From assembly GCA_045631885.1 (NCBI GenBank), contig JAZQVN010000035.1:262-64261 (forward strand): 64,000 nt of DNA. The letters run 5' to 3'. This DNA is from Bacilli bacterium. Its GTDB lineage: Bacteria; Bacillota_I; Bacilli_A; RFN20; CAG-826. The notes below the pieces were generated by a model, which was not told where the DNA came from, did not search any database, and worked only from the letters and a program-made list of their open reading frames with translations. Made by a program: the position numbers and the translations under genes. Position 1 is the first letter of the stretch. Each line of letters opens with the position of its first letter. Below are positions 10,515 through 53,356 of the stretch, piece by piece.

Positions 10515-10524
10515 AATGTGCTCC

Positions 10525-11232: not shown

Positions 11233-11376
11233 TTAATTATTCCTCACAACCAAAATAACAACGAGACAAATCGCCATAAGTAAAGAAATGATCCCGATAA
11301 CTATGAGACCAGAAATAGGAAAATGAACTTTTCCATCATCTACTAATTCTTCTTGTTCTTCACGTTCTTCTTCCAT
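11233..11376 (-). CDS. Small acidic-N-terminus single-TM protein of 47 aa, not in the ORF track
   Basis: MEEEREEQEELVDDGKVHFPISGLIVIGIISLLMAICLVVILVVRNN. Its stop codon abuts the ATG of the downstream gene (11230-11232), and its ATG is 2 nt from the upstream gene's stop. Confidence 0.35.
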   Translation of the reverse strand: MEEEREEQEELVDDGKVHFPISGLIVIGIISLLMAICLVVILVVRNN

Positions 11377-11378
11377 AA

Positions 11379-25252: not shown

Positions 25253-26320
25253 ATGAATATCATCGACTATTTAGAAAGTTATAAAGATTTGTCATTAAAA
25301 GAAGCACCGTTCAATGAACTAGACGCGGCGATATTCTCTTGTCTAGCTTATTTCCCTTTTGATTTATTAAATGAAACAAAGAAATCTTTTAAAAACGACA
25401 AGATCCTTTCTTTTATTGATAGTTATTATCCAGGCGATAATGTTGGCGAACATATCGTTTTGAATATCAAAGCGATGTCTTTAGTCCTCAATTCCAAAAG
25501 ATTTAAAGGGATTAAATTCACTAACTTTGAAAAGAAAAGAAGCGATGACTCCATCGAGCAATTCCAAGCAGTCACCATCGAAATGAAGAAATTCACATAT
25601 GTTTCCTTCTCTGGCACTGATGCGACGACATTAGGCTGGAGAGAAGACTTTAATATGGGTTATTTAGATATCGTTCCTTCGGAAGTTGATGCGATTAGAT
25701 ATATCAATAAGATTAGAAAGAAACATCCATTTAAACCAATCTATATTGGAGGCCACTCCAAAGGTGGGCGTCTAGCAGTACGTGCAGGAAAAGAAGTTTA
25801 TAAAAAGAACACTCTTGTTTCGGTATTCTCTTTTGACGGTCCTAACTTCACTGAAGAATTCTACGATGAAACTTATGAAGAGATGAAACATCTCATTTAT
25901 GAATACGCGCCAAATGAATCAATCGTTGGAAGATTAATTACTGATAGAAATAATAAGATTATCGTTCAATCAGATGCTTCATTTATTTATCAACACAGTT
26001 TATACACATGGTTAGTGGATGATAATCATTTTATCCACGAAGATAAATATACAGATCGTTCTAACAAGATTGCACTTATTTGCCATGAAGTGTTCACCAA
26101 ATATGACAATCACACTAAAAGTGTGTTCGTGAATACTTTGTTTGATTTATTTGATAGATTAAACATCACTGAATTAAAAGATACTGAATATAACAAACAA
26201 CTAGTTCTTAATTCATTAAGCAGTATCCGCGTGGAATGGAAAAACATCCCAAAAGAAAGCCGCAAAGTTATTGTCGGTATTATCTTTACTATCGTTTTAT
26301 TAGCAATAAAAAGAAGGTAA
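25253..26320 (+). CDS. Alpha/beta hydrolase (lipase-like, DUF2974/Mbeg1-like) with a C-terminal TM anchor
   Basis: 355 aa. Nucleophile elbow IGGHSKGG and a C-terminal hydrophobic segment VIVGIIFTIVLLAI. Confidence 0.5.
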   Translation: MNIIDYLESYKDLSLKEAPFNELDAAIFSCLAYFPFDLLNETKKSFKNDKILSFIDSYYPGDNVGEHIVLNIKAMSLVLNSKRFKGIKFTNFEKKRSDDSIEQFQAVTIEMKKFTYVSFSGTDATTLGWREDFNMGYLDIVPSEVDAIRYINKIRKKHPFKPIYIGGHSKGGRLAVRAGKEVYKKNTLVSVFSFDGPNFTEEFYDETYEEMKHLIYEYAPNESIVGRLITDRNNKIIVQSDASFIYQHSLYTWLVDDNHFIHEDKYTDRSNKIALICHEVFTKYDNHTKSVFVNTLFDLFDRLNITELKDTEYNKQLVLNSLSSIRVEWKNIPKESRKVIVGIIFTIVLLAIKRR

Positions 26321-27256
26321 TTAATTACCTTCCTCAATAAATTTAATGATCGCAGATATTATCTTTTCGTCTTGGTAAGTCATCTTTAACGCTGATTTAT
26401 CAGACATATATTTTTGTTTGTCCTCTAATGTTTTTAACTTCTTTTCTTTGACTAGTTGATTATAAGTTCCAAACACTTCATTCATATAATTAACTGATTC
26501 GAGTGTGTAGTTAGGGTTGTGTTTCTTTCCATCTTCTTCTATGAAGGAAAAGTTTGGATTACCGATTTCTTGCACTAGTTTAAGTGAATTATTAAAACTC
26601 ACCATTTGGTCATCTTTGGAATGGATGAACAATAACTTATCTGAGGCATTCTTCAAGTAATTCATATTATCGATACCGAAATACTTTGGATCCGCTTTCT
26701 TTTCGATATTAAGAATTCTCTTTCTTAAGAAGTTTGATTTAGTCCATTGTTGAAGTTGTAATTCCACACTTAAAAAACCAGAGATAAGGACCGCTTTAGA
26801 AATATGGTTGTTGATGTTAACGATATTTAATCCTGTATATCCACCTAGTGAATGGCCAACCACAATAATCTTCTTATCGAGTTTTAAATGATTTAATAAA
26901 TCAACGACATCTCTGGTTGGTTCATTAAAAGAAAATAAACTTTCACCTTCGGATTTATCGCATCCCATATAATCAAGGGTTAACACTTTATATCCATTTG
27001 AACATAAAGCATTTATCTCTGACATATAAGCGGTATGACCTGGTCCAATACCGGGAAGGAATAAAATGATTCTGTCTTTTTTGAAATTTGGAAAGCTATA
27101 CACAAAGTAAGAAATCTTTGCTTCTCGAGAGTTAACAAAGGTTCCTTTTTCTTCTTTTAAACCAGGAAAATCTTCCGCTGATAAATATGGAATAATGCCG
27201 TCTTTATCATAACGGTGAATTAATAATTTTTTGTAAACAAATCTAAGCAAACCCAT
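26321..27256 (-). CDS. Alpha/beta hydrolase (esterase/lipase type)
   Basis: 311 aa. GHSLGG nucleophile elbow and a LPGIGPG oxyanion region. Confidence 0.7.
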   Translation of the reverse strand: MGLLRFVYKKLLIHRYDKDGIIPYLSAEDFPGLKEEKGTFVNSREAKISYFVYSFPNFKKDRIILFLPGIGPGHTAYMSEINALCSNGYKVLTLDYMGCDKSEGESLFSFNEPTRDVVDLLNHLKLDKKIIVVGHSLGGYTGLNIVNINNHISKAVLISGFLSVELQLQQWTKSNFLRKRILNIEKKADPKYFGIDNMNYLKNASDKLLFIHSKDDQMVSFNNSLKLVQEIGNPNFSFIEEDGKKHNPNYTLESVNYMNEVFGTYNQLVKEKKLKTLEDKQKYMSDKSALKMTYQDEKIISAIIKFIEEGN

Positions 27257-29688: not shown

Positions 29689-30207
29689 TCAAAAATTATA
29701 CTTCTCTCTTTGCTTCTTTATAACCCCTGTTTTAATCACTAATTGAGCGATAATTCCAACGAATACACCGGTGATAATCGCAGAAACAGAAATGACTGGT
29801 AAATAGTAAAGGATATATGGAGTGTTAAGGAAGAATAACGCGACGATGATTTGCCCAAAAACATGGAACAAAGAACCAATCACACTTACTCCGATAACAG
29901 AGAATTTTTTTATTAACACATAAAACAATATCATAATTCCTAAAGATAAAACTGCGCCTGTTAATGACATTAAAAATCCCATCGTCAAGAATGTTCCTCT
30001 AAGGATACCCACTAAAAAGACACGGGCAAGATTAACACAAATCGCTTCCACTATTCCTAATTCATATAAAATGATGAGAATCATAATGTTGGCTAAACCA
30101 AGTTTTACTCCAGGAATACCAATGCTTGGAATAAAAGATTCTAAAATCGCGATGATGATAGTACCCGCGGTTAATACACCTAATAAAGCAATCTTATGCG
30201 TATTCAT
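29689..30207 (-). CDS. Gx-transporter-family (HepS-like) membrane protein
   Basis: 172 aa with 5-6 TM helices. In the typical position next to a NusG-II-domain protein and ApbE. Confidence 0.5.
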   Translation of the reverse strand: MNTHKIALLGVLTAGTIIIAILESFIPSIGIPGVKLGLANIMILIILYELGIVEAICVNLARVFLVGILRGTFLTMGFLMSLTGAVLSLGIMILFYVLIKKFSVIGVSVIGSLFHVFGQIIVALFFLNTPYILYYLPVISVSAIITGVFVGIIAQLVIKTGVIKKQREKYNF

Positions 30208-30593
30208 TATCCAACCCTCACATCCATATCGTTATTAGAGTTACCACCTTCAATAACGACATACACTGCGTTATACGCACAAATAATTGGTCTATTAGTT
30301 TCATAGACATAGCCCATATTGACGCAATCATGATGTGGACAATTAGATTCGACAATCGCGACTCCGCCATCATGGGTTTTAATATGAACTTTGCCTTTTA
30401 ATCCATCGATATAATAATCAGCGTCTTCTTTATTTGATAAATCGATTGTTTCAGCAACTTCGTTTTGAACATATACTTTGGCCACTAAATCAGTTTTCAC
30501 TCTGAAAGCTAAAACCAACACTAAAGAAACTACCGCTACTAAAAGTAAAGAGGCAATAAGGATAATATCGTTTCTTAATCTCTTCCTATCCAT
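30207..30593 (-). CDS. NusG-domain-II-like small membrane-anchored protein
   Basis: 128 aa. N-terminal TM followed by KVHIKTHDGGVAIVESNCPHHDC. Confidence 0.45.
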   Translation of the reverse strand: MDRKRLRNDIILIASLLLVAVVSLVLVLAFRVKTDLVAKVYVQNEVAETIDLSNKEDADYYIDGLKGKVHIKTHDGGVAIVESNCPHHDCVNMGYVYETNRPIICAYNAVYVVIEGGNSNNDMDVRVG

Positions 30594-31555
30594 TAGTACT
30601 TATTGACCTCAATATCTTCGTTTTGATAAATAATCAAGCCGTCTTTAACGACAATTGTTTTTAAATTATATGTTTCTTCAAGTTCTTTAATCTCATCGAC
30701 TGCATTCATCATCATTGATGTTGACATTGCATCGCCAAAATAGCCTTCTTCAGAAATAACCACTACCGCATCATTCAAACTTACCGCACTGCCAGTTACT
30801 GGATTTACAATGTGTGAGTAGGTTACTCCATCAATTGTTTTACCTTGCTTATATATACCAGATGTAGAAATAAAACAATCTTTGATTTTTAAATAATATT
30901 TATCGATACATATCTCGCTTAAATCGACATTGAAATGCCCATCTTCAGTATTCTTTTTGCCTAGTAAAATAGATGACATTCCTCCGTCTATGAGGCAACG
31001 TTTAATGTCATGTTCTTTAAGGTATTCTTGTGCCCTATCTAATGCATATCCTTTAACTATTCCACCAAGGTCGATTTCAGCCTCTCCAACTCTTTGAACT
31101 ATATTGTTATCTTTAAAGAGCAAACTGCTGTTTTGAATCTTAGTTAATTCTTCATTTACGATATTTTCATCGAGGATTTGCCCGTTATTTAAAGATTCTT
31201 TCCATTTTTTTGAAAGAGATCCACACATGATATTATAGTTAGATGCACCATTATCTTTGACTTCATAAGCAACCTTTAAAAGATCGTATAAATCTTCATC
31301 GATTTGGATTTCGTCATTAGTCTCATTTATTGAATAAACATTAGTGATATTTCTTTTTAAATAATTGTCTGATAAGGCATCGTAACGATTAAAAATATCA
31401 GTGAGATTTTTTAAATCGGTTTCTTCCCCTTCGTATAATCTGATGTTCACATATGAATCAAAAGGAAAAATCCTCTTTTCGAGGACAGAAGGACTTTGAT
31501 TACAAGCAGATATGAAGGTTATTAATGCCAAAGGCAATATTTTTTTAATTTTCAT
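30593..31555 (-). CDS. apbE: FAD:protein FMN transferase ApbE, lipoprotein
   Basis: 320 aa. Lipobox LITFISAC. ApbE-like DLGGIVKGYALD and a C-terminal GDAMSTS. Confidence 0.8.
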   Translation of the reverse strand: MKIKKILPLALITFISACNQSPSVLEKRIFPFDSYVNIRLYEGEETDLKNLTDIFNRYDALSDNYLKRNITNVYSINETNDEIQIDEDLYDLLKVAYEVKDNGASNYNIMCGSLSKKWKESLNNGQILDENIVNEELTKIQNSSLLFKDNNIVQRVGEAEIDLGGIVKGYALDRAQEYLKEHDIKRCLIDGGMSSILLGKKNTEDGHFNVDLSEICIDKYYLKIKDCFISTSGIYKQGKTIDGVTYSHIVNPVTGSAVSLNDAVVVISEEGYFGDAMSTSMMMNAVDEIKELEETYNLKTIVVKDGLIIYQNEDIEVNKY

Positions 31556-31557
31556 AT

Positions 31558-31875
31558 TTATAGATGGGCTTTAACTTTAGTGCCATCTTCATTTGGATGT
31601 TGATCCAAGTATTCGATAATTGGTTTAAAGTTAAGGTCTTCTTTTCCCGGTTTGCATTTTCTTAAGTTTTCTTCTTTACCAGCGATAATTGCTTCCGCCA
31701 TTGCTTTACAGCCAGCATAACCACAGCTACCACAATTATAATTTGGTAATCTCTTTGCGACTTCTTCAATTCTTTCATCTTCTTTAACATGGAGAATCTT
31801 CGCGGCGATAGCTAAACCAAGACCAAATAATAAGCCTAAACCCAATAAGATAAGAATAGCCCATAAAATTTCCAT
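31558..31875 (-). CDS. rnfB: RnfB-like protein consisting of the N-terminal TM helix plus Fe-S domain only
   Basis: 105 aa. A TM helix, then CGSCGYAGCKAMAEA...C (the RnfB N-terminal Cys4 cluster), with no ferredoxin CxxCxxCxxxCP repeats. Confidence 0.55.
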   Translation of the reverse strand: MEILWAILILLGLGLLFGLGLAIAAKILHVKEDERIEEVAKRLPNYNCGSCGYAGCKAMAEAIIAGKEENLRKCKPGKEDLNFKPIIEYLDQHPNEDGTKVKAHL

Positions 31876-32069
31876 TATTCTTTAGCCTCCCCTTTATAAA
31901 ACGAACATTCTGCATGAGAACATGAAGAACAATTTTCATCATTGATTTTGATATTTTCACATCCCTTAGGAACTGGAGTGCGTCTATATAAAACAAATGA
32001 AACGAGAAATACGATGAGTAAAATCACCAATATGGATATCGCAATGATTAAATAACCGACTTGACTCAT
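31875..32069 (-). CDS. Small TM protein with a C-x9-C-x2-C-x4-C cluster
   Basis: 64 aa. Hydrophobic helix followed by CENIKINDENCSSCSHAEC. Its stop codon and the ATG of the rnfB-like ORF overlap by 1 nt, and its ATG overlaps the rnfA stop (ATGA). Confidence 0.4.
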   Translation of the reverse strand: MSQVGYLIIAISILVILLIVFLVSFVLYRRTPVPKGCENIKINDENCSSCSHAECSFYKGEAKE

Positions 32070-32665
32070 AATGAAATACCTGAGAATAATCCTTGTAAAC
32101 CCATAAAGGCTAACGCCATTAAGGCCGCGGTAATTAAAGCGATTGGTAAACCTTTAAATGCTTTTGGTGTATTCGCGGATTCTAATCTTGTACGAACACA
32201 ACTAAAGACAACGATAATGGCAAAGAAGCCTAAAGATGTACCAATACCATTCGCTAATGCTTCAAGGAAGTTTAATCCTTGATCGGTATTACCTTGAGCG
32301 ACACCAAGAACTGCACAGTTCGTGGTAATTAATGGTAAATAAATACCCAAACTCTTATAAAGAGTTGGTGAGAATTTCTTAATGAATAAGCCCACTAATT
32401 GAACTAAAGAAGCAATAACTAAAATATAAGCCACTGTATCCATAAATGGGATACCAGCAGGAACTAAGATAAAGTTATATAATGGCCAACAAATTAATGT
32501 GGCTAAAACAATAACAAAGATAACGGCAAAGCCCATACCAATTGACGATTTAACTCTCTTAGAAACACCTAAGAATGGGCAAATACCATAGAATCTTGAT
32601 AAGACAACATTATCAATGAGCATACTAGAAGTAACGGCTAAAATAAACGCGACGAGCATTTGCAT
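32066..32665 (-). CDS. rnfA: Rnf electron transport complex subunit A
   Basis: 199 aa. Six-TM RnfA/NqrE-like protein. Confidence 0.85.
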   Translation of the reverse strand: MQMLVAFILAVTSSMLIDNVVLSRFYGICPFLGVSKRVKSSIGMGFAVIFVIVLATLICWPLYNFILVPAGIPFMDTVAYILVIASLVQLVGLFIKKFSPTLYKSLGIYLPLITTNCAVLGVAQGNTDQGLNFLEALANGIGTSLGFFAIIVVFSCVRTRLESANTPKAFKGLPIALITAALMALAFMGLQGLFSGISL

Positions 32666-33429
32666 TATTCTTTACCTCCTTCTGCTTTCGCTTTTGCAGC
32701 GGCAGCTTGTGCTTCTTGAGCTTTTCTAATCTTTTCTTGTCTTTCCAAATTGGCTTTTAATTCATCTTTTCTATTCTTAATGAAAGCGATGACCGCTAAG
32801 ATGAGAGCAAAGACAATAAATGCACCCGCTGGATTCTGGAATATCGCTATTTCATATCCAACTGGAATAATTCTTAATTTGAAATAAGGAATAAAGGTAA
32901 AGATTTTACCAAATGTAAATGTTCCACTACCGATGATTTCTCTAAATAAAGCCATTGACATAATGGCTAAGGTATAACCAACACCCATTCCTAAAGCATC
33001 GATAAACGAATCAAACGGTCCATTCTTACTCGCATACGCTTCCGCTCTACCTAAAACAATACAGTTAACGACAATTAATGAGATAAAGACTCCTAATGTT
33101 GAATAAAGTTCTGGTAAGAATGCATTAGTTAGCATCTTCACGATAGTAACGAATGTCGCGATGATAACGATATATGATGGGGTTCTAATTTCTTCAGGAA
33201 TTAATTTTCTTAACAAGGAAACGATGACATTAGAGCAAATCAAAACAATGGTGAATAATAAGCCCATACCTAAAGCGGCCTCTAACGTTTTGGTGGTCGC
33301 TAAAGCTGGGCAAGTACCGAGAATAGACACGAATAATGGATTCTCGTTAACTATACCCTTGAGGAAGTTCTTTTTGGTGTAACCTTTTTCTCTACTCATA
33401 TCACCAACTCCAATATTCCTCGGCGGCAT
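32665..33429 (-). CDS. rnfE: Rnf complex subunit E
   Basis: 254 aa. RnfE/NqrD-like, with a C-terminal Ala/Lys-rich tail. Confidence 0.85.
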   Translation of the reverse strand: MPPRNIGVGDMSREKGYTKKNFLKGIVNENPLFVSILGTCPALATTKTLEAALGMGLLFTIVLICSNVIVSLLRKLIPEEIRTPSYIVIIATFVTIVKMLTNAFLPELYSTLGVFISLIVVNCIVLGRAEAYASKNGPFDSFIDALGMGVGYTLAIMSMALFREIIGSGTFTFGKIFTFIPYFKLRIIPVGYEIAIFQNPAGAFIVFALILAVIAFIKNRKDELKANLERQEKIRKAQEAQAAAAKAKAEGGKE

Positions 33430-33946
33430 CTTTCGCCTCGTTAACCATATCTCTAATTAGTTTTGCTCCATAAGTCGCTCCACAAGAGACATCGTTTAAA
33501 TCTCTACTTCCTTCATTAAGTGGATCGATATAATTCTCTTCTAACGCAGCGGCATATGTCTGCTCATTAACCACTACTGATAAGCCAGTGAAGCCATGAC
33601 TTTCAACATCAAAGCCAACGATAAGAGAGATTTTTCCATACATATTTGAACCACTTGTTTTGAACGCTAATCCAAAAGCAGAAGTAATAGTTTCGTCATA
33701 TATTTTATAGGCTGTTTGGACGTACTTATAATCTTCAGAAACATCCAATTCTTCATAATCTACGCGGTTTTTGCCGTAAATTTCGCACATTCCCGCGCCA
33801 ATTTTCATTTTTTCATTTTGGGCAATTTTCTCTTTAGTGACTAAGTTTGTTAAGCCAATTAAAGCACCACTAGCGGCAGCGACTAAACCCAAAGTGATAG
33901 AGGTAATAATATAATGTTTTTTATTAGCCATTATAGGTACCTCCAT
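33401..33946 (-). CDS. rnfG: Rnf complex subunit G (FMN-binding)
   Basis: 181 aa. N-terminal TM plus an FMN-bind-like domain. Confidence 0.75.
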   Translation of the reverse strand: MEVPIMANKKHYIITSITLGLVAAASGALIGLTNLVTKEKIAQNEKMKIGAGMCEIYGKNRVDYEELDVSEDYKYVQTAYKIYDETITSAFGLAFKTSGSNMYGKISLIVGFDVESHGFTGLSVVVNEQTYAAALEENYIDPLNEGSRDLNDVSCGATYGAKLIRDMVNEAKDAAEEYWSW

Positions 33947-35045
33947 AGAATATTGCTAAGAAAGTAATTAGCCCTGAGATAACAATAATTAATCCCATCG
34001 CTAAGAACTTCTTCCATGTATAACGTGGATTGCTCCATTCGTAGTGATCTAAAACAACCGCCATCATATTGGCAATTAAAATTGAATAGCCCATACCTTC
34101 TGGTAAGGCGGCAAATAAACGGATGAAGACTGTTACTACCGCGGCAATCATGCCATAAATATATCTCGATGGCGAGTTGATCGGGCTCGTTACTGGATCA
34201 GTGAGCATAAATGTCACGCCAAATAAAACACCACCGCTTAAGACATTGTATAGAACGAATAAGAACGGATTGACTTCGTTATTTAAACCATAGATTGATA
34301 ATCCTGCGATTAAACTTAAGAAAACAAATGTTCCTAAATAACCAACGACAATTCGATAATCAGCGCTTCTTCTCACTAATAAGTAAATTAAACCAATGAG
34401 AATAGTAATCTTATATACTTCACCTAAAGTTCCAGGAATTCTTCCTAAGAATAAATCTAGGATTGGATATTGAGTGATATTGGAATACATTCCTTCACTT
34501 AATAAACCGAGTGGAGTGGCGCCTGCAGCGACATCAGGAATTGTGTAGAACCAAGTATCAACATAAGTAACATACTGAGAACCAAAACAGAATTTAGCAA
34601 AAATCATGCCCACGACTGCGGGGTTAAAGATATTGCTTCCTAATCCACCAAACACTAATTTACCAAAAACAATGCCAACAAATGCTCCAACGATAACTGC
34701 GTAGATAGGTGCGCCTGCAGGCATAATTAAAGTAAAGATTGTCGCGGAGATAGACGCGGTCAATACATTATTCTTATTAAATTTACCTTTATAGGCATAA
34801 ATGAATTTTTCTTTAAATGTATGTTTTTGCCCATCTAAAGGCATCATATTTCTGAGTCCAACATAAACGAATTCAGAACCAATCATCACTAACATAGCTA
34901 CTGCGAAGAATAAAAGTGTATTAAGTGGATAAACGACAATAGAGAAAATAAGCGTTGGAGCAAGCGCGATTAAAACATCAATCATCATTCTACTGACGGT
35001 TGCTTTTCTTCTAAGATGTGGCGCGGTCTCTTTTGTAATTGTCAT
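33924..35045 (-). CDS. rnfD: Rnf complex subunit D
   Basis: 373 aa polytopic RnfD/NqrB-like protein. Confidence 0.85.
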   Translation of the reverse strand: MTITKETAPHLRRKATVSRMMIDVLIALAPTLIFSIVVYPLNTLLFFAVAMLVMIGSEFVYVGLRNMMPLDGQKHTFKEKFIYAYKGKFNKNNVLTASISATIFTLIMPAGAPIYAVIVGAFVGIVFGKLVFGGLGSNIFNPAVVGMIFAKFCFGSQYVTYVDTWFYTIPDVAAGATPLGLLSEGMYSNITQYPILDLFLGRIPGTLGEVYKITILIGLIYLLVRRSADYRIVVGYLGTFVFLSLIAGLSIYGLNNEVNPFLFVLYNVLSGGVLFGVTFMLTDPVTSPINSPSRYIYGMIAAVVTVFIRLFAALPEGMGYSILIANMMAVVLDHYEWSNPRYTWKKFLAMGLIIVISGLITFLAIFYGGTYNG

Positions 35046-36343
35046 AACTTCGCAATCATCTTTGCCTTTCTCACATAATCAGTCACTTGAATCTTTGATG
35101 TACAAGAATAGGCACAAAGTCCACATTCAATACATTTCAAAGGATTGAGAGCTTTGATTCTCTCTTTATCTAATGTTTTCACCGCGTTCATAATCTGCAC
35201 AGGTTCAAGATGAACTGGGCAAGATAAAACACAGCTTCCACACCTAATACACGGTTCTTCTTTATCAGTGTTCTTATCAAGAATAATAATAGAGGTCACG
35301 GTTTTAGTGATGATACAATCATCACTCGGGACAGAGGCCCCCATCATTGGACCACCTAAAATAAAGACTTTTTCTTTATCTGGGTTTTTATATCCCCCAC
35401 ACATTGGAATTAAATCTTTAATCGATGTTCCTACTCTCACTCTAAAGTTCTTTGGGAAATTGATACCATCACCAGTGATAGTCACAAATCTTTTGATAAC
35501 TGGCATATTGTATCTAATAGCCTTATAAATACCCACCATCGTGGAAACATTGAAATTAATAATTCCACGATTAGATGGCAATTCACCTGGTTTTAATTCA
35601 ATGCCTGTCGCTGATTTAATCATCGCCACTTCCCAACCTTGAGGATAGAAATTACCAACACAGCATAATTCAATACCGGAGCCAGCGTATTCTTTAATCA
35701 CTTGAGAATAAACCGCTTTGATATCGGTATATTTAGATTTGATACAAATCTTCGCGTGCTTACAGTTAAAAGCTTGCATCGTATATTTGATACCTTCCAT
35801 CACTCGATATGGGAATTCAAGCATTAAGCGATGGTCCGCGGAAATATATGGTTCACATTCAATACCGTTAACTAAAATCATATTAATTGGCTTATCGGTT
35901 TGGAACTTAATATAAGTTGGGAAAGAAGATCCACCTAAACCAACATTCGCTGTTTCTTTAATGATTTCAGTCATTTCTTCTTTAGTTAAAGCAGCGATTT
36001 GTTCCGGAGTTCTCACAAATACACCAGAATCTAATGTGTCTTTAAAATCATTTTCAATTTTGATGAAATCAGTTAATTTACCATTTCTATGATAATGTTT
36101 TTCTAAACCGACATATGTACCAGAACATGTCGCGTGAATTGGTTGTTCAAAAAATGGACCATGACGAACACCAATGACTTGGCAAGAATTAACATGGTCT
36201 CCTTCTTTGATAAAAAGATCCGCTTTTGGACAACGGGCATTTGCCACGGCAATATAAAGATATTGCGGTTTTGTGAATCTAATCGCAGGTAAAGAACCCA
36301 CCAACTTTTTGGTATCTTTGATATGATCAGTTTTTGCAATCAT
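35042..36343 (-). CDS. rnfC: Rnf complex subunit C
   Basis: 433 aa. Two ferredoxin-type motifs, CIRCGSCVLSCP and CIECGLCAYSCT, distinguish it from NqrA. Confidence 0.9.
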   Translation of the reverse strand: MIAKTDHIKDTKKLVGSLPAIRFTKPQYLYIAVANARCPKADLFIKEGDHVNSCQVIGVRHGPFFEQPIHATCSGTYVGLEKHYHRNGKLTDFIKIENDFKDTLDSGVFVRTPEQIAALTKEEMTEIIKETANVGLGGSSFPTYIKFQTDKPINMILVNGIECEPYISADHRLMLEFPYRVMEGIKYTMQAFNCKHAKICIKSKYTDIKAVYSQVIKEYAGSGIELCCVGNFYPQGWEVAMIKSATGIELKPGELPSNRGIINFNVSTMVGIYKAIRYNMPVIKRFVTITGDGINFPKNFRVRVGTSIKDLIPMCGGYKNPDKEKVFILGGPMMGASVPSDDCIITKTVTSIIILDKNTDKEEPCIRCGSCVLSCPVHLEPVQIMNAVKTLDKERIKALNPLKCIECGLCAYSCTSKIQVTDYVRKAKMIAKL

Positions 36344-36543
36344 AGAATTATTTTAACTTATGTAAAATAATAACAAAAGAGTTAAATGATATAGATTTAC
36401 CCGATGGTGACTTTTTTTCATTCTGTCTTTATCGCTAAAAGGCTGATGCAATCTTATCAACTGGTAGTTTTCATAGAAAAAGCACTAGTTAATTATTTCA
36501 ATCTTTCTTAACTAATACATAAATATATGCGAAAATTATATAA

Positions 36544-36783
36544 ATGATTGATGTTAGAAAAGAAGTATATAAAGAGATTAAAAATGTCATCGGTGACGAT
36601 GTCGATTTTAATGATGATTCTTTATTTAAAGAAGATTTAGGAATTGACTCATACAAAGCGGTCACTATTTTACTTAATCTCGACAAAAAGAAAATCGGTT
36701 TTAAAAGCGATAACTTACCTTCGATTAAAACAGTCAAAGACTTATTAGATTCATTAACTTTTTATGGAGCACAATCTCGTTAG
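36544..36783 (+). CDS. Stand-alone acyl/peptidyl carrier protein (phosphopantetheine-binding)
   Basis: 79 aa four-helix ACP pattern. FKEDLGIDSYKAVTILLNL carries the LGxDS phosphopantetheinylation site. The C-terminal helix TVKDLLDSL is also ACP-like. Confidence 0.7.
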   Translation: MIDVRKEVYKEIKNVIGDDVDFNDDSLFKEDLGIDSYKAVTILLNLDKKKIGFKSDNLPSIKTVKDLLDSLTFYGAQSR

Positions 36784-38089
36784 TTTAGTCATATCATCAA
36801 TTAATAAGAACTCTGATAAAGTTTTTATCATTAATAAAAATGTCGAATATACATATTCTAGATTTTTTGATGATGTCAAAAGAGTTTGCCCTCATTTAAG
36901 AAACGGAAGAATCCTTTTAAAAGCGGGCGATAAATATTATTACGCTTTATCTTTTATCGCTGGATTAATGATGCACTCAATGATGTTTTTATCAAATAAA
37001 GATTCCTCCATTTATGATGATTATAAATTTGATCAAATCATCGATGATGAATTCATTCAAAACGTTCTTGATAAAGGTGAAGAACCAATATCTATTGATA
37101 ATATCAATACTTCTATCGACGAAGATGACCCAATGATGGTTGTTTTATCTTCTGGAACATCACTTAAACCAAAGCCAATTGTTCTCTCCTATAAAGCGGT
37201 GAGAAAGAATATTGAATCAGGCTTAAGAATTCTTTATGTTGAATCTTCTTGGACATTTGTGTCCCTCTTACCTTTAGATCACGCATTCGGGATTACTAGC
37301 GACTTCCTAGATTTATTACTTTCTGGCGCGAAAGTTGTCTACTCATATTCTTTAATAGAATATTTCATGTATTTAAGAAAATATTCTCCAGATATGATTA
37401 GTATTCCAATCACCATCTTAAAAACACTTCAAGAGATGATGAAAGAACAAGGAAAAACCGCATTAGGAAATAACATCAAACAAATCCTTGTCGGTGGTTC
37501 TAAATGTTATAAAGAGATTATTGAATTCTTTAAAAAATATGACATCACTGTCTGCACATCATATGGTTTAACCGAATGTGCGCCTTGTGTATCAATCTGT
37601 TCACCAAAATACTTTATGTTAGAGTCTGATGGTAAAGTTTTAGATTGCCATCAAATTAGATTTTCTAAAGAAAATGAAATCATCGTTTCTGGTGAATCGA
37701 TCATGCTTAATTATTTAGATGAATATGATAAAGGAATTATCGCGACAGAAGTTCACACCAAAGATGTTGGATATATGAAAGATGGCTATTTATTTGTGAC
37801 AGGTAGATTAGATAATCTCATCGTCATGGATAACGGATTTAAAATCCAACCAGAGACATTTGAAAAAGACTTATTAATTAATAATCCTTATATAAAAGAA
37901 TGTGTGATTTATTATTTTGATAGCAAACTCAATTTAGATGTCGTCATGGATGAATCGTATTTAAAAGAATTAAGGAAGCAATTAGATTATTTAGATATCA
38001 ACATTAACATCGTTAATGAAATTAAGAAAAACGCACTAGGAAAAATATCGCGTATCTACTACAAAAATGGCAAAAAAGAAGAGAACTAA
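36764..38089 (+). CDS. ANL-superfamily adenylating enzyme (carrier-protein ligase; DltA/acyl-ACP-synthetase-like)
   Basis: 441 aa. A3 motif VVLSSGTSLKPKPIV, A5 motif TSYGLTE, A7/A8 motif GYLFVTGRLDNLIVMDNGFKIQPETFE, A10 motif KNALGKISR. Overlaps the carrier gene by 20 nt. Confidence 0.8.
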   Translation: MEHNLVSLVISSINKNSDKVFIINKNVEYTYSRFFDDVKRVCPHLRNGRILLKAGDKYYYALSFIAGLMMHSMMFLSNKDSSIYDDYKFDQIIDDEFIQNVLDKGEEPISIDNINTSIDEDDPMMVVLSSGTSLKPKPIVLSYKAVRKNIESGLRILYVESSWTFVSLLPLDHAFGITSDFLDLLLSGAKVVYSYSLIEYFMYLRKYSPDMISIPITILKTLQEMMKEQGKTALGNNIKQILVGGSKCYKEIIEFFKKYDITVCTSYGLTECAPCVSICSPKYFMLESDGKVLDCHQIRFSKENEIIVSGESIMLNYLDEYDKGIIATEVHTKDVGYMKDGYLFVTGRLDNLIVMDNGFKIQPETFEKDLLINNPYIKECVIYYFDSKLNLDVVMDESYLKELRKQLDYLDININIVNEIKKNALGKISRIYYKNGKKEEN

Positions 38090-38750
38090 AAGAGATACAT
38101 TTTTATTCAAAGTCATGAGAGTCATCTCTCGTCCTTTTGATCATAAACCAAAGTTTATCTTCACCACTCCTCTAGAAGAGCCGAGTATCATTATTTGTAA
38201 TCATAACCATCCTCGTGGCCCAACGAAATGGAGCTTTTATTTTCCAAGTGATAAATTCATGATGTGGGGAAATGGAAGATTATGCGGAGGCATAAAAGAA
38301 GTCTTCTTTGCTATTATCGATACAATGGTAAGAAACGGGACTAATAAAGTTCTCGCCACATTCTTCGCGATATTCGCCACTCCATTTATCAAACTAAGTT
38401 TTTCTCAAAGTCGTATTATCCCTGTTTATTACGATATGAGATTTTATCAAACCATCAAAATGAGTATTGAAGAGTATAAAGACGGCAATCACATCATCAT
38501 CTTCCCAGATAAAAAAGACATCAAATTCTCGTATAACATCACAGAAATCATGCCAGGATTTTTGATTTTAGCTCGTCAATTAAAGGAAGAAGGATATGAC
38601 CCATATATCGTTCCTTCTAAATCAAATAAGAAAAGAAAAAAGATTGTTTTAGATAAACCAATTCGATTAAGCGAAGTGGAAGCACAATATAAAAATGATG
38701 AAGAAATCTTAGAATTCTTCAAAAATAAAATCAACGGACTGATTGAATAA
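38067..38750 (+). CDS. Putative LPLAT/PlsC-like acyltransferase with a divergent motif I
   Basis: 227 aa. TPLEEPSIIICNHNHPRGP lies where the NHxxxxD block is expected. IIIFPDKKD resembles FPEGTR, and GYDPYIVPS resembles the VPIVPV block. Overlaps the ligase gene by 23 nt. Confidence 0.45.
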   Translation: MAKKKRTKRDTFLFKVMRVISRPFDHKPKFIFTTPLEEPSIIICNHNHPRGPTKWSFYFPSDKFMMWGNGRLCGGIKEVFFAIIDTMVRNGTNKVLATFFAIFATPFIKLSFSQSRIIPVYYDMRFYQTIKMSIEEYKDGNHIIIFPDKKDIKFSYNITEIMPGFLILARQLKEEGYDPYIVPSKSNKKRKKIVLDKPIRLSEVEAQYKNDEEILEFFKNKINGLIE

Positions 38751-38755
38751 ACATC

Positions 38756-38786
38756 CACCGGACAATCCGGTGGTTTTTCATAGTCG
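38756..38786 (+). terminator. Rho-independent terminator after the acyltransferase gene
   Basis: ccaccgga-caat-ccggtgg followed by ttttt. Confidence 0.6.
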
Positions 38787-38879: not shown

Positions 38880-39050
38880 TCAGTCGAAGTCGATGGTCAA
38901 TTGCTTGAACTCGCAAAGCTTCCTTAGAATCTTTCCGATTTCAAGTCTTTTTTGTCCGAAGAACACTTGTCTTCGGTATTTCGGTGCAAACACGATGTGG
39001 TACTTACAGTTCCATACAGTGTGTGCTAAACTATACTCGTCTCGAGACAT
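38880..39050 (-). pseudogene. tnpA: Truncated IS200/IS605 Y1 transposase (TnpA), N-terminal about 56 aa only
   Basis: MSRDEYSLAHTVWNCKYHIVFAPKYRRQVFFGQKRLEIGKILRKLCEFKQLTIDFD followed by a stop. Matches the N-terminus of IS200 TnpA but ends before the HUH histidines and the catalytic Tyr. Confidence 0.65.
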
Positions 39051-39244
39051 ATTTCTCCTTTCATATTCAAGCGTTGGTCCGCATGAATATTGTAAGGAGA
39101 TTTTATTTTTGGGCAAAACTATAAGTTTTACCTCCACCCCAGACTATCTGGGGGTTTTAACTCGCTCAGCCTTTGCAGGACTGGCTCAGACAAGAAAAGC
39201 CTCGGTTTCCCAAGGCTTCTCATTTTAAAATATCTTTATCAGTA

Positions 39245-39718: not shown

Positions 39719-39991
39719 TTGAGTATGGAAAATAGATTACAAGAATATAGAAAGAAAAGAGGTTACACTCAAGATCAAATGGCGTCTTTGATTTCTGTGT
39801 CCAGGCAGACATACATTAACTATGAGTCAGGAAAAGCCGAACCTTCATTTGAAACTCTTAAATTGATTTCTAAAATATTGAAGACTCCTATTGATGATTT
39901 GCTAGATAATGATTGCTATGCCTCTGATAGAAATGGAATCACGAAACAACTTGTAAATGACATTGAAGAAATCTTAAAACAATATAAATAG
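39719..39991 (+). CDS. XRE-family helix-turn-helix transcriptional regulator
   Basis: 90 aa. RLQEYRKKRGYTQDQMASLISVSRQTYINYESGKAEP is a classic Cro/C1-type HTH. Confidence 0.8.
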   Translation: MSMENRLQEYRKKRGYTQDQMASLISVSRQTYINYESGKAEPSFETLKLISKILKTPIDDLLDNDCYASDRNGITKQLVNDIEEILKQYK

Positions 39992-40818: not shown

Positions 40819-40894
40819 TGGTGGATCTGACGAGGATCGAACTCGCTACCTCCTCCATGCCATGGAGGCGCTCTCCCAGGTGAGCTACAGACCC
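40819..40894 (-). tRNA. tRNA-Ala (anticodon GGC)
   Basis: Reverse complement GGGTCTGTAGCTCACCTGGGAGAGCGCCTCCATGGCATGGAGGAGGTAGCGAGTTCGATCCTCGTCAGATCCACCA folds as a cloverleaf with the G3:U70 identity pair and an encoded CCA. Confidence 0.85.
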
Positions 40895-40975: not shown

Positions 40976-42325
40976 CTATTTATCTTGTTTTTCTTGATCG
41001 ATTTCCTCAATAGTCCTGGAATCTTTATGAGGAATTTGTTTCCATTTCACTTTAAAGAATAAAGAGATAATAGAAATTGGAATAGAAATTAAATCATACC
41101 AAGGCCAAACGATGATGTAGAAAATAGCTTTCGGTAATGAGCAATGGATATTCTTCCATTCTTTAATAGCAATCAATACACCTGCGAACCACGCGGCTAT
41201 ACATATACCTAATATATTATTAATAGTGAACGCTAAGAAGGAGTTCCAGTTATAATCCGCTCCTCCAGTAAATCCCAAGATTAACGAAGTTACATTATAA
41301 ATTAATGTGACTAAGAAGGTGAATAAAGCATATGGGAAGATATCCCAGAAGATATCATATTTTGCCCATGTTGGTTTTTTGAAGAATGATTTCACCAATC
41401 TCCAAGAATCTAAAGCCCAAACGATTAATGAACCTTTGTTCCATCTGAAACGCTGTCTCATTTGGATAAAGAAGTTTGTTGGTTGTTCATCGTAACATAT
41501 CGCTTCATCGGTATAACCTAAACGATTATTCGCGGAGATATTTTTAATAACGAATTCCATATCTTCCACCAATCGATGCCATTTCCAGCCATCCATTAAT
41601 AACTTGCTGCTCACGAGATAACCACTACCGGTTCCGGAAGTTAATGATTTTAAAATCATTCTTGGTCTATGGTTAGCCATTGTAATACGGTAGAAGTTAA
41701 AGCCATATGCAGATGAAATGATGTTGTCTTGGAAATTCTTTGGGCAGCGATAACCGGTAATAACATCAAATCTTCCGGTTTGGAAAGCATCATTCATCTT
41801 ACTAACGAATTGATGGTCAACAACATTATCTGCATCTAAAAGTAAGTAAGCATCATAATAATCGATGCCAACTTCTTCTTTAATGTGATTGAAAAGGAAT
41901 TCTAATCCCCAACCTTTTCTCGCTTTACTTAAATCATGTCTTTCAAAAACATGACAGCCTAATTCTCTAGCGATTTCTGCGGTTTTATCATTCTCGCTAC
42001 AATTGTCTGCGACTAGCCAAATATCAATTAATTCACTTGGATAGTCTTGTTTTCTCATTGATTCAATTGTGTTTCTGATAACTAGTTCTTCGTTCTTCGC
42101 AGAAATGATGAATGCATATCTTTTATCTTTTGGAGCTTCTGGGTAGGAGATTCTTTTACCAAAGAAACCGATTAAAATATAAACAAATCTATACGCGGTA
42201 AATATACCAATCACTAAAGTGATAATGACACAGATAAAGTTTAAAAGACCTTGCACTGTATCTAATTTATCTAAACCAAGGTAATCATTTAAAAGATAGT
42301 TTTTTAACCATTCCCAAAATTCCAT
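40976..42325 (-). CDS. Family-2 processive glycosyltransferase (QxxRW type; PgaC/chitin- or cellulose-synthase-like)
   Basis: Start revised to the Met at 42325, because the tracked N-terminal extension overlaps tRNA-Arg. N-terminal TM, GT-A domain with DAD, the QRFRW motif, and a C-terminal multi-TM region. Confidence 0.75.
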   Translation of the reverse strand: MEFWEWLKNYLLNDYLGLDKLDTVQGLLNFICVIITLVIGIFTAYRFVYILIGFFGKRISYPEAPKDKRYAFIISAKNEELVIRNTIESMRKQDYPSELIDIWLVADNCSENDKTAEIARELGCHVFERHDLSKARKGWGLEFLFNHIKEEVGIDYYDAYLLLDADNVVDHQFVSKMNDAFQTGRFDVITGYRCPKNFQDNIISSAYGFNFYRITMANHRPRMILKSLTSGTGSGYLVSSKLLMDGWKWHRLVEDMEFVIKNISANNRLGYTDEAICYDEQPTNFFIQMRQRFRWNKGSLIVWALDSWRLVKSFFKKPTWAKYDIFWDIFPYALFTFLVTLIYNVTSLILGFTGGADYNWNSFLAFTINNILGICIAAWFAGVLIAIKEWKNIHCSLPKAIFYIIVWPWYDLISIPISIISLFFKVKWKQIPHKDSRTIEEIDQEKQDK

Positions 42326-42342
42326 AATAAACCCTTTCTTAG

Positions 42343-42419
42343 TGGCGCGCCCGAGACGATTTGAACGTCCGACTCCCAACTTAGGAGGTTGGTACTCTAT
42401 CCAGCTGAGTTACGGGCGC
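42343..42419 (-). tRNA. tRNA-Arg (anticodon CCT)
   Basis: Reverse complement GCGCCCGTAACTCAGCTGGATAGAGTACCAACCTCCTAAGTTGGGAGTCGGACGTTCAAATCGTCTCGGGCGCGCCA folds as a cloverleaf with anticodon loop CTCCTAA. Confidence 0.85.
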
Positions 42420-42433
42420 AAACCATTAATAAC

Positions 42434-43342
42434 TTATTTTAAGAAGAAATCTAAGATGTCTTTCGCCACTTCTTCCTTGCGATCTTCGTTTAAGATTTCA
42501 TGACGTAATCCTTCATAGATTTTCGTGGAGACATCTTTAACTCCATATTTGTGATACATCTCTTCTAAGATGCCAACAGCTTTACCATATGTGGTAACTG
42601 GGTCATCACTACCGGAGATAATAAAGATTTTTGTATCAGGATTCAATAATTTTAAAGATTTATCTTTATGAATTGGTAACATGCCTTCGATAAATTCTAA
42701 GCAGAAACCTTTTCTTGGACCAAATCCACATAATGGGTCAGCGATATATTTATCAACGTTTTCTTCGTTAACTGATAACCAGTCAAATGGTGTTCTTGGG
42801 TTTTTGATCTTCTTATTGAAAGAACCAAACATTAAGCTGTTCATTAAACCCGCTTTTTCATCTCTATTTTTCTTAGAGGTTGTCATCTTCGCTAACATAT
42901 GACCCATACCTAAGACTGGGTTTTTGCTTCCTGAACCACATAAAACGATTTTCTCTACTTCGCCTGGGAAGACTTGTAAAAATCTTTGACCCATAAATGA
43001 ACCCATAGAGTGGGAGAAGATATATGTTGGTTTCTTTGTTTCTTCTTTTAATTGAACGATTAATGCGTGAACCGCTTCGATTTGACGCATAAAACCATTT
43101 TCTGGCCAAATACCAATATTGGATAAATCTTCTTTGACATTGAGACCTTGACCAAAGGTATCTAAAGCATAAGCATCCGCGCCATGTTCGTTAAGGTACT
43201 TCGCTAAGAAGTCATAACGGGAACAATGTTCCTCCATACCTTCCATGATAACAACATTGAATTTGCTATCTTTTGTTAACCACTTTAAACCTTGTAAAGT
43301 GTCTTCACCATTAGTGAATGAGAATTGTTTTGCTTCGCTCAT
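42434..43342 (-). CDS. Alpha/beta hydrolase, lysophospholipase / monoacylglycerol-lipase-like
   Basis: Start revised to the Met at 43342, 3 nt after the galE stop. GHSMGS nucleophile elbow. Confidence 0.65.
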   Translation of the reverse strand: MSEAKQFSFTNGEDTLQGLKWLTKDSKFNVVIMEGMEEHCSRYDFLAKYLNEHGADAYALDTFGQGLNVKEDLSNIGIWPENGFMRQIEAVHALIVQLKEETKKPTYIFSHSMGSFMGQRFLQVFPGEVEKIVLCGSGSKNPVLGMGHMLAKMTTSKKNRDEKAGLMNSLMFGSFNKKIKNPRTPFDWLSVNEENVDKYIADPLCGFGPRKGFCLEFIEGMLPIHKDKSLKLLNPDTKIFIISGSDDPVTTYGKAVGILEEMYHKYGVKDVSTKIYEGLRHEILNEDRKEEVAKDILDFFLK

Positions 43343-43344
43343 AA

Positions 43345-44361
43345 TTAATCTCCATATCCGTTTGGATTGTTCTTTTGCCAATGCCATGAATCTCGACATG
43401 CATCAACGATATCTAATTGAGTCTTAAAGCCCATTTCATCATAAGCTTTTTGGCAATCCGCATAGTTTTCATCAACATCGCCTGGACGACGTTCGCAAAT
43501 TACATAATTGATTTTGATGTTATTGGCTTTTTCAAAAGCGTGAACTAATTCAAGAACGCTTGTTCCTTTGCCAGTGCCTAAGTTATAGATGACTAAGCCT
43601 GGTTTAGTTTCTAATTTCTTTAAAGCGCAGAGGTGGCCTCTTGCTAAATCGACAACGTGGATATAGTCTCTGACACCAGTGCCATCGACGGTTTTATAAT
43701 CATCACCATAAACATTTAAATGATCTCTTTTACCGACAGCGACTTGAGTGATATATGGCATTAAGTTATTTGGAATACCTTGTGGGTCTTCACCAATTAA
43801 ACCAGATGAATGCGCACCGATTGGGTTGAAGTAACGCAAGATTGCGATGTTGGCATCCTTATGTTCTTTCGCGTAATCTTTGAGTAAATATTCAATGTCT
43901 AATTTGGTTTGTCCATAAGGGTTTGTACATCCACCAACTTTATCAGTTTCTTTAAGTGGGACATGATCTGGAACACCATAAACTGTCGCGCTCGAGGAGA
44001 AGACAATGTTATGTACTCCATATTTTGTCATGAGCTTTAAAAGAACCTTACTGCTACCGACGTTATTATCGATATAAAGTTGAGGTTTTGCCACTGATTC
44101 CGCGACGCTTTTTAAGCCGGCGAAATGGATGACATCGGTGATGTTTTCCTTTTCAAAAACTTCACTCATTTTTTCTTCATCTTGCACAGAAACTTCGTAA
44201 AATCTTGGCTTTTTGCCGGTAATTTTGAAAATTCTGTTCAAAACTTCTGGTTTAGAATTGACATAGTTATCGACGATGACAACGTCGTATCCGTTGTTTA
44301 ATAAATCAACAACTGTATGGGAACCAATATACCCGGTTCCACCTGTAACTAGAATGGCCAT
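43345..44361 (-). CDS. galE: UDP-glucose 4-epimerase
   Basis: 338 aa. MAILVTGGTGYIGSH Rossmann motif and a catalytic Y..K. Confidence 0.9.
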   Translation of the reverse strand: MAILVTGGTGYIGSHTVVDLLNNGYDVVIVDNYVNSKPEVLNRIFKITGKKPRFYEVSVQDEEKMSEVFEKENITDVIHFAGLKSVAESVAKPQLYIDNNVGSSKVLLKLMTKYGVHNIVFSSSATVYGVPDHVPLKETDKVGGCTNPYGQTKLDIEYLLKDYAKEHKDANIAILRYFNPIGAHSSGLIGEDPQGIPNNLMPYITQVAVGKRDHLNVYGDDYKTVDGTGVRDYIHVVDLARGHLCALKKLETKPGLVIYNLGTGKGTSVLELVHAFEKANNIKINYVICERRPGDVDENYADCQKAYDEMGFKTQLDIVDACRDSWHWQKNNPNGYGD

Positions 44362-52449: not shown

Positions 52450-53355
52450 ATGAAGGTGTTCAAAAAGCAGGAAACATTAGTCCAAAACATGGCCTATATG
52501 GGGCTGATGGCAGCGGTCAATGTGATATTCGTTGTCCTAACCTATTTCGTTCCGTTTTTGTTGTTTGTCCTCGTTTTTGTTTTACCACTTTGTAGTGCAA
52601 TTATTTCCTATTACTGCAAAAAGAGATACTTCCCCATTTATCTCATTGTTGTTTCAGTAATTTGTTTATTGATTGATCTCCCTGACACAATCTTCTATGT
52701 AATCCCATCGTTAATCACTGGATTCTTATTTGGCTTATTCATCCAATTAAAGTTTCCATCCGTTTATATCATTTCAATTACAACAATTGTGCAATTTGGG
52801 ATCTCTTTAGCGTCACTACCATTAATCAAACTTATTTCCGGAAGAGACATTGTCATTGATATGGCGACGATGTTCCAATTACAAAATTATGAGTATCTAG
52901 ATTATGTTAAATATTTCTTCATTTACTTCATATCCTTAGTCCAGATTATTTTGACATTCTTAGTCTTGCAATCAGAGCTAGGAAAGTTTGGCATTTCTTT
53001 CCCAGATGGAAAAAACCGCTTATATCTTTTAGATATACTAAGTATTATTTGCTGTTTGTTAGTGGTCTTATTTGCGTTTTTGGTTCCAGAGATTTCTTAT
53101 CTATTTTTAATCACCAGTTTAATCTTTGTCGTGGGTAGAATTATTTATCTTAATTTTTCCCATTACAAATTATATTTGATTGAGTTAGGGGCTTTCATTT
53201 TAATCACAATTTTCTTTGTGGCGTTAGTTTATTCAAATATCAACAAACCACTCGGATTAACTAGCCTTGCAATTCTCCCATTTTTAATTTCTTGTGCGTG
53301 TTTGATTAATAATTGTTTGTTAAGCAAGCGTAACAAAGATACAATTAATAATTGA
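52450..53355 (+). CDS. Hypothetical polytopic membrane protein
   Basis: 301 aa with about 8 hydrophobic helices. No motif recognised. Confidence 0.5.
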   Translation: MKVFKKQETLVQNMAYMGLMAAVNVIFVVLTYFVPFLLFVLVFVLPLCSAIISYYCKKRYFPIYLIVVSVICLLIDLPDTIFYVIPSLITGFLFGLFIQLKFPSVYIISITTIVQFGISLASLPLIKLISGRDIVIDMATMFQLQNYEYLDYVKYFFIYFISLVQIILTFLVLQSELGKFGISFPDGKNRLYLLDILSIICCLLVVLFAFLVPEISYLFLITSLIFVVGRIIYLNFSHYKLYLIELGAFILITIFFVALVYSNINKPLGLTSLAILPFLISCACLINNCLLSKRNKDTINN

Positions 53356-53356
53356 T

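Follow-up and report, generated by a model that had tools for sequence, protein, structure and literature searches.

A conserved carrier protein, ligase and acyltransferase gene trio of Acholeplasmatales-like Bacilli as a candidate fatty-acylation cassette

Aas of Escherichia coli is a single fused protein, with its acyltransferase part ahead of its acyl-acyl carrier protein synthetase part (AT-AAS order), which draws on the housekeeping acyl carrier protein (ACP) and carries the canonical HX4D acyltransferase motif. Another arrangement has been described in Rhodobacteria, where a specialised acyl-ACP synthetase, AasR, acylates only a specialised ACP, AcpR, steering free fatty acid to one pathway (PMC9386255). 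Here we analyze a trio of small genes encoding a carrier protein, an ANL adenylating ligase and a divergent transferase of predicted lysophospholipid acyltransferase (LPLAT) fold. The trio was found in a 64,000-nucleotide (nt) stretch of a Bacilli genome (GenBank assembly GCA_045631885.1, contig JAZQVN010000035.1, positions 262 to 64,261), the whole of which is referred to as the window.

The closest proven system in logic appears to be AcpR/AasR with serine palmitoyltransferase (SPT). As in that system, the gene for a small carrier adjoins that of an ANL ligase presumed to serve it, an arrangement found for the trio at eight loci. The predicted users of the acyl group differ, however, being a pyridoxal phosphate-dependent SPT that makes a sphingoid base in the one case and a putative LPLAT-fold O-acyltransferase in the other, as do the hosts, which are Proteobacteria for AcpR/AasR and Acholeplasmatales-like Bacilli for the trio. 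In enzyme content the trio is probably closest to Aas. Like E. coli Aas and chlamydial AasC, it pairs an LPLAT-type acyltransferase with an ANL acyl-ACP synthetase, which would re-use free fatty acid for membrane lipid. Unlike Aas, it consists of three separate proteins, encoded in the order ACP, ligase, acyltransferase; the carrier is private and the HX4D Asp is missing. The original prediction, made from the letters of the window and a list of their open reading frames (ORFs), had viewed the trio as a disassembled Aas. The logic of this comparison is fair, but by none of the measures applied would the trio be classed with Aas. The Aas models NF005291, NF006386 and NF005959, with cut-offs of 886-1349 bits, match the ligase part only and give it 57-73 bits. 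MenE and FadD models are just as near to the ligase, and the transferase has no detectable sequence link to solved LPLATs.

With regard to active-site pattern, the closest proteins seem to be PatA, HtrB and MsbB (LpxL/LpxM). PatA differs in using palmitoyl-CoA and in retaining a structural Asp at H+5, and its identity to the transferase is about 10%. The nearest structure is the plastid glycerol-3-phosphate acyltransferase (GPAT) of squash (1iuq/1k30), which uses acyl-ACP. This enzyme is soluble, with a canonical HX4D and an Arg/Lys-rich glycerol-3-phosphate (G3P) pocket, and is 10-12% identical to the transferase. The trio also resembles DltA/DltC, in that a neighboring adenylating enzyme is presumed to load a small carrier protein. 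It is unlike the Dlt system in that DltB (an MBOAT protein) and DltD were not found beside the eight trios, the ligase is of the acyl/aryl-CoA-synthetase class and the third component has the predicted LPLAT fold. Literature searches found no description of the three-protein architecture or of the LPLAT clade of the transferase. The early suggestion of an undescribed system is thus upheld for the architecture itself, but not for the logic of a dedicated ACP with a dedicated ligase, which is known from AcpR/AasR.

Organization and conservation of the trio

The three genes and the elements beside them are as follows:

36544-36783, plus strand: carrier gene, 79 amino acids (aa), ORF with a PP-binding domain
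36764-38089, plus strand: ANL ligase gene, 441 aa, ORF with an AMP-binding domain
38067-38750, plus strand: transferase gene, 227 aa, ORF assigned to the LPLAT fold by fold prediction
35042-36343, minus strand: rnfC, divergent from the trio, with RnfC_N, Complex1_51K, SLBB and Fer4 domains
36344-36543, either strand: intergenic region flanked by the divergent rnfC and carrier genes, presumed to hold both promoters
38755-38781, plus strand: terminator-like hairpin (CCACCGGACAATCCGGTGG then TTTTT), a G+C-rich stem followed by a T-run

The ORFs overlap by 20 nt (carrier/ligase) and 23 nt (ligase/transferase), and the coordinates on which a single operon with translational coupling had been proposed proved exact. 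The hairpin and T-run start 5 nt past the transferase stop codon and probably mark the operon end; at loci L010, L011 and L015 a similar hairpin and T-run is found directly 3' of the transferase gene. The overlaps and the hairpin, echoed in these three related loci, argue for a three-gene operon. Since the gene order with its overlaps is also kept in all eight loci, the operon and coupling interpretation holds. Within the rnfC/carrier intergenic region the sole promoter-like site lies on the minus strand (36366-36339) and no plus-strand promoter consensus was identified in 36344-36543. Sequence inspection revealed no Shine-Dalgarno-like sequence ahead of any trio gene. As the host may not rely on such signals, we give this no weight.

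The carrier-ligase-transferase order recurs in seven other metagenomic contexts, eight with the window, with overlaps ranging from -1 to about 30 nt (L001-L004; L005; L010; L011/L012; L013/L014; L015/L016; L017/L018). The flanking genes are different in each context, including transketolase with GGDEF-EAL, pyruvate kinase with GGDEF, a 4HBT thioesterase with a PALP enzyme, and peptidase C69 with Hydrolase_4. Recurrence in seven contexts with unrelated flanks indicates that the trio is not a chance grouping. The three proteins diverge in parallel, with identities to the window of 37-51% for the carrier, 40-60% for the ligase and 25-48% for the transferase. A search over the trio loci for a conserved fourth gene found none, the GGDEF, transketolase, 4HBT and other flanking genes being lineage-specific. 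The neighborhood comparison that had been suggested for this locus therefore supports the trio as a conserved unit, and no curated family names it. The trio is rare, comprising about 23 protein clusters, and close relatives come from gut and rumen metagenomes. Only one match was found among 185,579 species genomes, L005, an Acholeplasmatales metagenome-assembled genome (MAG) from goat omasum, and an exact search with the transferase of the window itself matched no contig.

In one lineage the neighbors may be informative. The genes that directly precede the trio in L017/L018 (L017 100-2029) encode an Sfp-type phosphopantetheinyl transferase (213 aa) and a canonical PF01553 acyltransferase, a divergent protein of 415 aa with HX4D in the form THASMLD and a C-terminal CxxC...CxxC zinc-ribbon-like segment. 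These neighbors would support both a holo-carrier and a glycerolipid context, for this lineage only. The more distant transferase relatives sampled (L006-L009, L019) stand alone, suggesting that carrier and ligase are an addition of one subclade, made up of roughly the six best-scoring representatives after the window's own group. In L019 the stand-alone relative is followed by a MarR gene and a DegV/FakB gene (1598-2847, MarR ahead), and a DegV/FakB gene is also found near the stand-alone member in L009 (10586-10753). This proximity may be a weak hint at a fatty-acid context.

The carrier, the ligase and the transferase

The carrier passes the Pfam PP-binding model (PF00550) marginally, with 22.4 bits over residues 9-69 against a cut-off of 20.8. 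Ser36 of its LGIDS motif (nt 36649-36651), the predicted phosphopantetheine site, is invariant (8/8 loci) within the kept motif (K/E)E(D/E)L(G/N)(I/L)DS(F/Y)(K/R)A, in agreement with the ACP-like protein first proposed. The isoelectric point (pI) is 5.0 in the window and acidic to near-neutral, 4.7-6.5, over the eight loci. NCBIfam ACP models gave many weak matches, 16-23 bits against cut-offs of 65-146; with scores so far under the cut-offs, the carrier is not an AcpP equivalog.

The ligase matches AMP-binding (PF00501) with 85 bits (cut-off 29.9) and contains the following motifs:

residues 129-138: A3
residues 267-271: A5, YGLTE
residues 332-334: TKD
residues 347-348: hinge, GR
residue 427: A10 Lys (nt 38042-38044)

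Among 15 homologues of 40-83% identity, S129-S133, K137, Y267-G268-L269-E271, T332-K333-D334, G347-R348-D350 and G426-K427 are invariant. A3 has the deviant form SSGTSxxxKP and A7 reads TKD in place of TGD. An AF2 model (pLDDT 88) was matched by Foldseek to ANL structures with E=1.5e-27 and TM scores of 0.65-0.78, the top matches being MenE, FadD13 and ttLC-FACS. Judged from its motifs and modelled structure, the protein is an ANL adenylating enzyme with the two-domain ANL fold, as the A-domain motifs recognized earlier had suggested.

Within the superfamily, the MenE model TIGR01923 scores the ligase at 111 bits, under its equivalog threshold of 330, and no men genes are found near the trio. 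NCBIfam long-chain fatty-acid-CoA ligase models give 95 bits, again far under cut-off, and the short PRK08308 ligase model aligns almost end to end with a score far under its cut-off. AA-adenyl-dom reaches 39.5 bits, compared with the 111 of menE, and DltA falls outside the best 25 NCBIfam models. Searching the PDB with phmmer identified MenE, 4-coumarate-CoA ligase, luciferases and a long-chain acyl-CoA synthetase as neighbors, and no DltA or nonribosomal peptide synthetase (NRPS) A-domain chain at E<=1e-5; in Foldseek, DltA is found at rank 26 only. Together, the NCBIfam, PDB phmmer and Foldseek neighbors place the ligase on the acyl/aryl-CoA-synthetase side of the superfamily.

Fold searches with the transferase returned the GPAT/LPLAT fold, with GPATs as the nearest structures, consistent with the LPLAT-like protein lacking HX4D that had been recognized at the outset. 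The protein is basic, with a pI of 9.7 in the window and 9.0-9.7 across the eight loci, and in all eight its N-terminus carries a Lys/Arg-rich amphipathic helix. Its conserved blocks are:

block 1: N45-H46-x4-G51-P52 (His46, nt 38202-38204)
block 2: I118-P-V-Y121-x-D123-x-R125
block 3: F146-P147-D148 (nt 38508-38510)

An exhaustive profile search for relatives recovered 523 cluster representatives at E<=1e-3 and 191 at E<=1e-10. Named members are all annotated as 'hypothetical protein' and come from MAGs of Erysipelotrichales, Clostridia and Spirochaetaceae; precomputed Pfam domains are present on almost none. The clade is thus a large LPLAT clade without a Pfam or NCBIfam name. Some of its distant members do pass the PF01553 cut-off (P0193 37.5, P0180 29.7, P0207 24.9, P0098 24.5 and P0200 23.4 bits), which indicates that the clade is a divergent branch of the PF01553 superfamily. 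Column statistics over 265 members were as follows:

N45: kept in 255
H46: kept in 261
position 51 (H+5): G in 151, A in 87, S in 18, never D
P52: kept in 254
Y121: kept in 251
D123: kept in 245
R125: kept in 233
T129: kept in 256
P147: kept in 250
position 148 (block-3 acid): E in 235 and D in 27 (262/265)

These statistics indicate that the clade as a whole shares a signature NHx4(G/A/S)P, of which NHNHPRGP is the version found in the window. The clade lacks the block-3 Arg (of FPEGTR). For P0207 and P0180, the block-1 stretch is aligned with the beginning of the PF01553 and TIGR00530 profiles, the presumed place of NHxSxxD. To our knowledge, all characterized LPLAT-fold members transfer fatty acyl groups. 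Several distant relatives are fused to membrane modules (P0193, P0128, P0130, P0207 and P0159/P0197/P0200), namely a GPH/MFS_2 transporter, EamA, GtrA, PAP2-like and unnamed multi-transmembrane N-terminal regions, and these fusions point to a membrane location for the family. The fusion to a transporter is reminiscent of the LplT-Aas pairing. In PatA, HtrB and MsbB, a block-3 Glu/Asp rather than the HX4D Asp appears to tune the catalytic His (PMC4792965; also PMC8519569). The pattern of the transferase, a His and a block-3 acid without the HX4D Asp, appears to fit this published arrangement. As it is also the norm across the clade, the altered first motif does not support the unusual chemistry that had been read from it.

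A candidate acylation route and its alternatives

We propose that the trio is a self-contained carrier-dependent fatty-acylation cassette, in which an acid would be loaded on a private carrier and passed to a membrane-lipid hydroxyl, and we assign this a probability of roughly 0.55; the nature of the acid and of the acceptor is what we infer. Based on its family and invariant motifs, the ligase would adenylate a free carboxylic acid; an exogenous fatty acid of medium or long chain is the most probable one. The conserved overlap of the carrier and ligase genes suggests that the acyl group would then pass to the 4'-phosphopantetheine on carrier Ser36, not to CoA or the housekeeping ACP. Finally, from its fold and conserved residues, the basic, presumably membrane-peripheral transferase would use the acyl-carrier thioester to esterify a membrane-lipid hydroxyl. 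His46 may act as general base, with Asp148 (Glu in most relatives) as a partner replacing the missing HX4D Asp. The acceptor may be a lysophospholipid, as for Aas, G3P or lysophosphatidic acid (LPA), as in a housekeeping replacement, or the sugar of a glycolipid, as for PatA. The term 'fatty' would follow from the predicted transferase fold and the ligase class, and from no specificity determinant. In evolutionary terms, a stand-alone acyltransferase family may have gained a private acyl-carrier supply of scavenged fatty acid in one Acholeplasmatales-related subclade.

Several observations weigh against this proposal. On the side of the ligase, the top models are those of MenE, acting on an aryl-type acid, and every curated cut-off is missed by far. 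The fold search is non-discriminating, MenE, oxalyl-CoA, feruloyl-CoA and fatty-acyl-CoA synthetases and luciferases all being matched at E ~1e-24 to 1e-27, and the protein, at 441 aa, is short and divergent in its N-terminal part. The helix II of the carrier, DS(Y/F)KA, is closer to the form of peptidyl and aryl carrier proteins (PCP/ArCP) than to the acidic one of AcpP. For the transferase, PF01553 gives 15.1 bits over blocks 2-4 only (E=0.02), missing the cut-off of 23, and narrow and broad profiles of the family found no LPLAT match among PDB chains by sequence. An hhalign comparison of the family with E. coli PlsC, using an approximate PlsC sequence, was weak (E=0.074); it lines up blocks 2-4 in the expected way, pairing IPxYxD with LLIDRN, IFPEDS with MFPEGTR and DxxI with VPIIPI (PlsC second). 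Lipid-synthesis genes, moreover, are not conserved neighbors of the trio, one lineage excepted.

One alternative is that the trio is the phosphatidic acid route of this lineage, using exogenous fatty acid to acylate G3P or LPA at sn-1 or sn-2 and standing in for FakAB/PlsX/PlsC in a genome poor in type II fatty acid synthesis (FASII), and not a specialized modification. The host is Acholeplasmatales-related, GPATs are the nearest structures of the transferase, Arg125 (233/265) and Thr129 (256/265) of block 2 could bind phosphate, and a second, canonical acyltransferase lies beside the L017 trio. An essential route would, however, be expected more widely in the order than a single match among the species genomes and so few protein clusters, and stand-alone relatives exist in Clostridia, Erysipelotrichales and Spirochaetes, which presumably carry PlsC as well. 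With the block-3 Arg also missing, we regard such a replacement as unlikely.

The transferase might instead acylate, in the manner of PatA, a glycolipid or other non-phosphate lipid, run on scavenged fatty acid. This could be the as yet unassigned activity behind the acylated glycolipids typical of Acholeplasma-type membranes and would define the function of the NHx4(G/A/S)P clade, which extends over gut Clostridia, Erysipelotrichales, Spirochaetes and Acholeplasmatales. Such a function is a speculative option that we hold to be improbable in this specific form.

The trio could also move a non-fatty acyl group, such as that of an aromatic, hydroxy or short acid, with a small molecule or a polymer as the acceptor, as a minimal secondary-metabolite-style adenylation, thiolation and transferase set with a logic like that of AsbC/AsbD/AsbE. 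MenE and 4-coumarate-type enzymes as best models of the ligase, its near full-length alignment to PRK08308, the PCP/ArCP-like helix II of the carrier and the 4HBT thioesterase upstream of the trio in L010 are all consistent with this idea. Each of these model scores is, however, far under its family cut-off. The eight loci share no other nearby biosynthetic gene, the transferase fold is, so far as we are aware, known only for fatty-acyl transfer at membranes, and its relatives are fused to membrane modules. We therefore consider a non-fatty acid doubtful.

The original prediction had also allowed for a Dlt-like system, in which the carrier takes up an amino acid (e.g. D-Ala) that is then joined to a surface polymer as an ester. 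The small carrier does adjoin an adenylating enzyme, the DltC model matches it weakly (E=0.0035), and DltA appears in the Foldseek results, if only at the rank given above. The ligase, however, sides with acyl/aryl-CoA synthetases by NCBIfam and by PDB phmmer, no MBOAT/DltB or DltD is encoded beside the eight trios or among the scanned ORFs of the window, and the product of the third gene has the predicted LPLAT fold. We rejected the Dlt-like interpretation on these grounds and give it hardly any credence. Finally, it is very unlikely that adjacency is meaningless, with the ligase supplying acyl-CoA to general metabolism and no relation to the carrier or the third ORF: the trio lacks visible Shine-Dalgarno sites and a plus-strand promoter, but order and overlaps are conserved at eight loci with different flanks, the proteins diverge in parallel and a terminator after the transferase gene is shared.

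Genomic surroundings and significance

The trio lies in the part of the window with the lowest G+C content (36001-38000, 0.305-0.311 compared with an average of ~0.35). The low G+C and the flanks that differ per lineage could mean that the cassette is mobile between genomes; the low G+C could equally reflect Lys/Asn/Ile-rich coding. Just downstream of the trio is a truncated IS200-like (Y1_Tnp) transposase fragment (38880-39137, minus strand; profile positions 1-43 of 121), followed by an XRE-type helix-turn-helix gene (39719-39991) and small ORFs without a family match. From the trio to tRNA-Ala, the sequence has the look of a small patch that is rearranged or island-like. At the Rfam gathering threshold only this tRNA-Ala(GGC) (40819-40894) was identified, and not a tRNA-Arg(CCT) found by ARAGORN at 42343-42419. 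The latter is overlapped by the mechanical TTG start of a GT2 glycosyltransferase ORF (40976-42379, minus strand), and the true start of that ORF is therefore probably a downstream ATG (MEFWEW...).

The rest of the window is an ordinary chromosomal stretch, with ribosomal genes, NusG, SmpB, a GlnRS/GluRS-type synthetase, GatA/GatB and LigA, as well as a PcrA-type helicase, an AsnRS/AspRS-type synthetase, TsaD, an rnf operon and galactose genes. The ribosomal genes come with an L10 leader:

4232-4322, minus strand: ribosomal protein L10 leader (RF00557, 47.6 bits), upstream of an rplJ-like ORF

In clustering, the RnfC of the window falls together with a protein from a 'Bacilli bacterium' MAG. 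No DltB, DltD, FASII, plsX/Y/C or fak genes were found among the window ORFs scanned. Nearby lipases and a lysophospholipase had been offered as context for the trio. At 25253-27256 and 42434-43399 the window encodes alpha/beta hydrolases, which are generic and lack conservation beside the trio elsewhere; the Hydrolase_4 protein beside L011 and the window hydrolase are not orthologs. As these genes are not conserved next to the trio in other genomes, we rejected a functional link.

Divergent from the trio, the rnf operon (29689-36343, minus strand) contains rnfC, D, a G-like gene, E and A, then ApbE, a NusG_II-domain protein and an Hpre_diP_synt_I protein. It includes a 500-nt gap (31556-32065), a position at which one might expect an rnfB-like gene. 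The galactose-utilization cluster consists of a TetR regulator (15994-16611), a GH31/melibiase-like gene (16627-18240), a gene on the plus strand (18230-19666) for a DUF6937/DUF6938 protein (366 and 289 bits), GalK (19666-20829) and GalT (20816-22291). From this setting, the DUF6937/DUF6938 protein may be an uncharacterized sugar-pathway enzyme. Two runs of three consecutive ORFs of about 200-300 aa each (52450-54653, plus strand; 9807-12146, minus strand) matched no Pfam family at E<=1e-4 to 1e-5.

If the proposed fatty-acylation cassette is correct, some gut and rumen bacteria of the Acholeplasmatales-like group would send scavenged fatty acids into membrane lipid via a private carrier. This would represent a third solution for the use of exogenous fatty acid, besides the known routes through fatty-acid kinase and PlsX or through the fused Aas, and would be relevant mainly to bacterial lipid scavenging and to Mollicutes-like membranes. 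The trio is compact, with three small genes, and in vitro reconstitution would be easy. The trio would then open a first way into the function of an LPLAT clade that numbers more than 500 sequence clusters.

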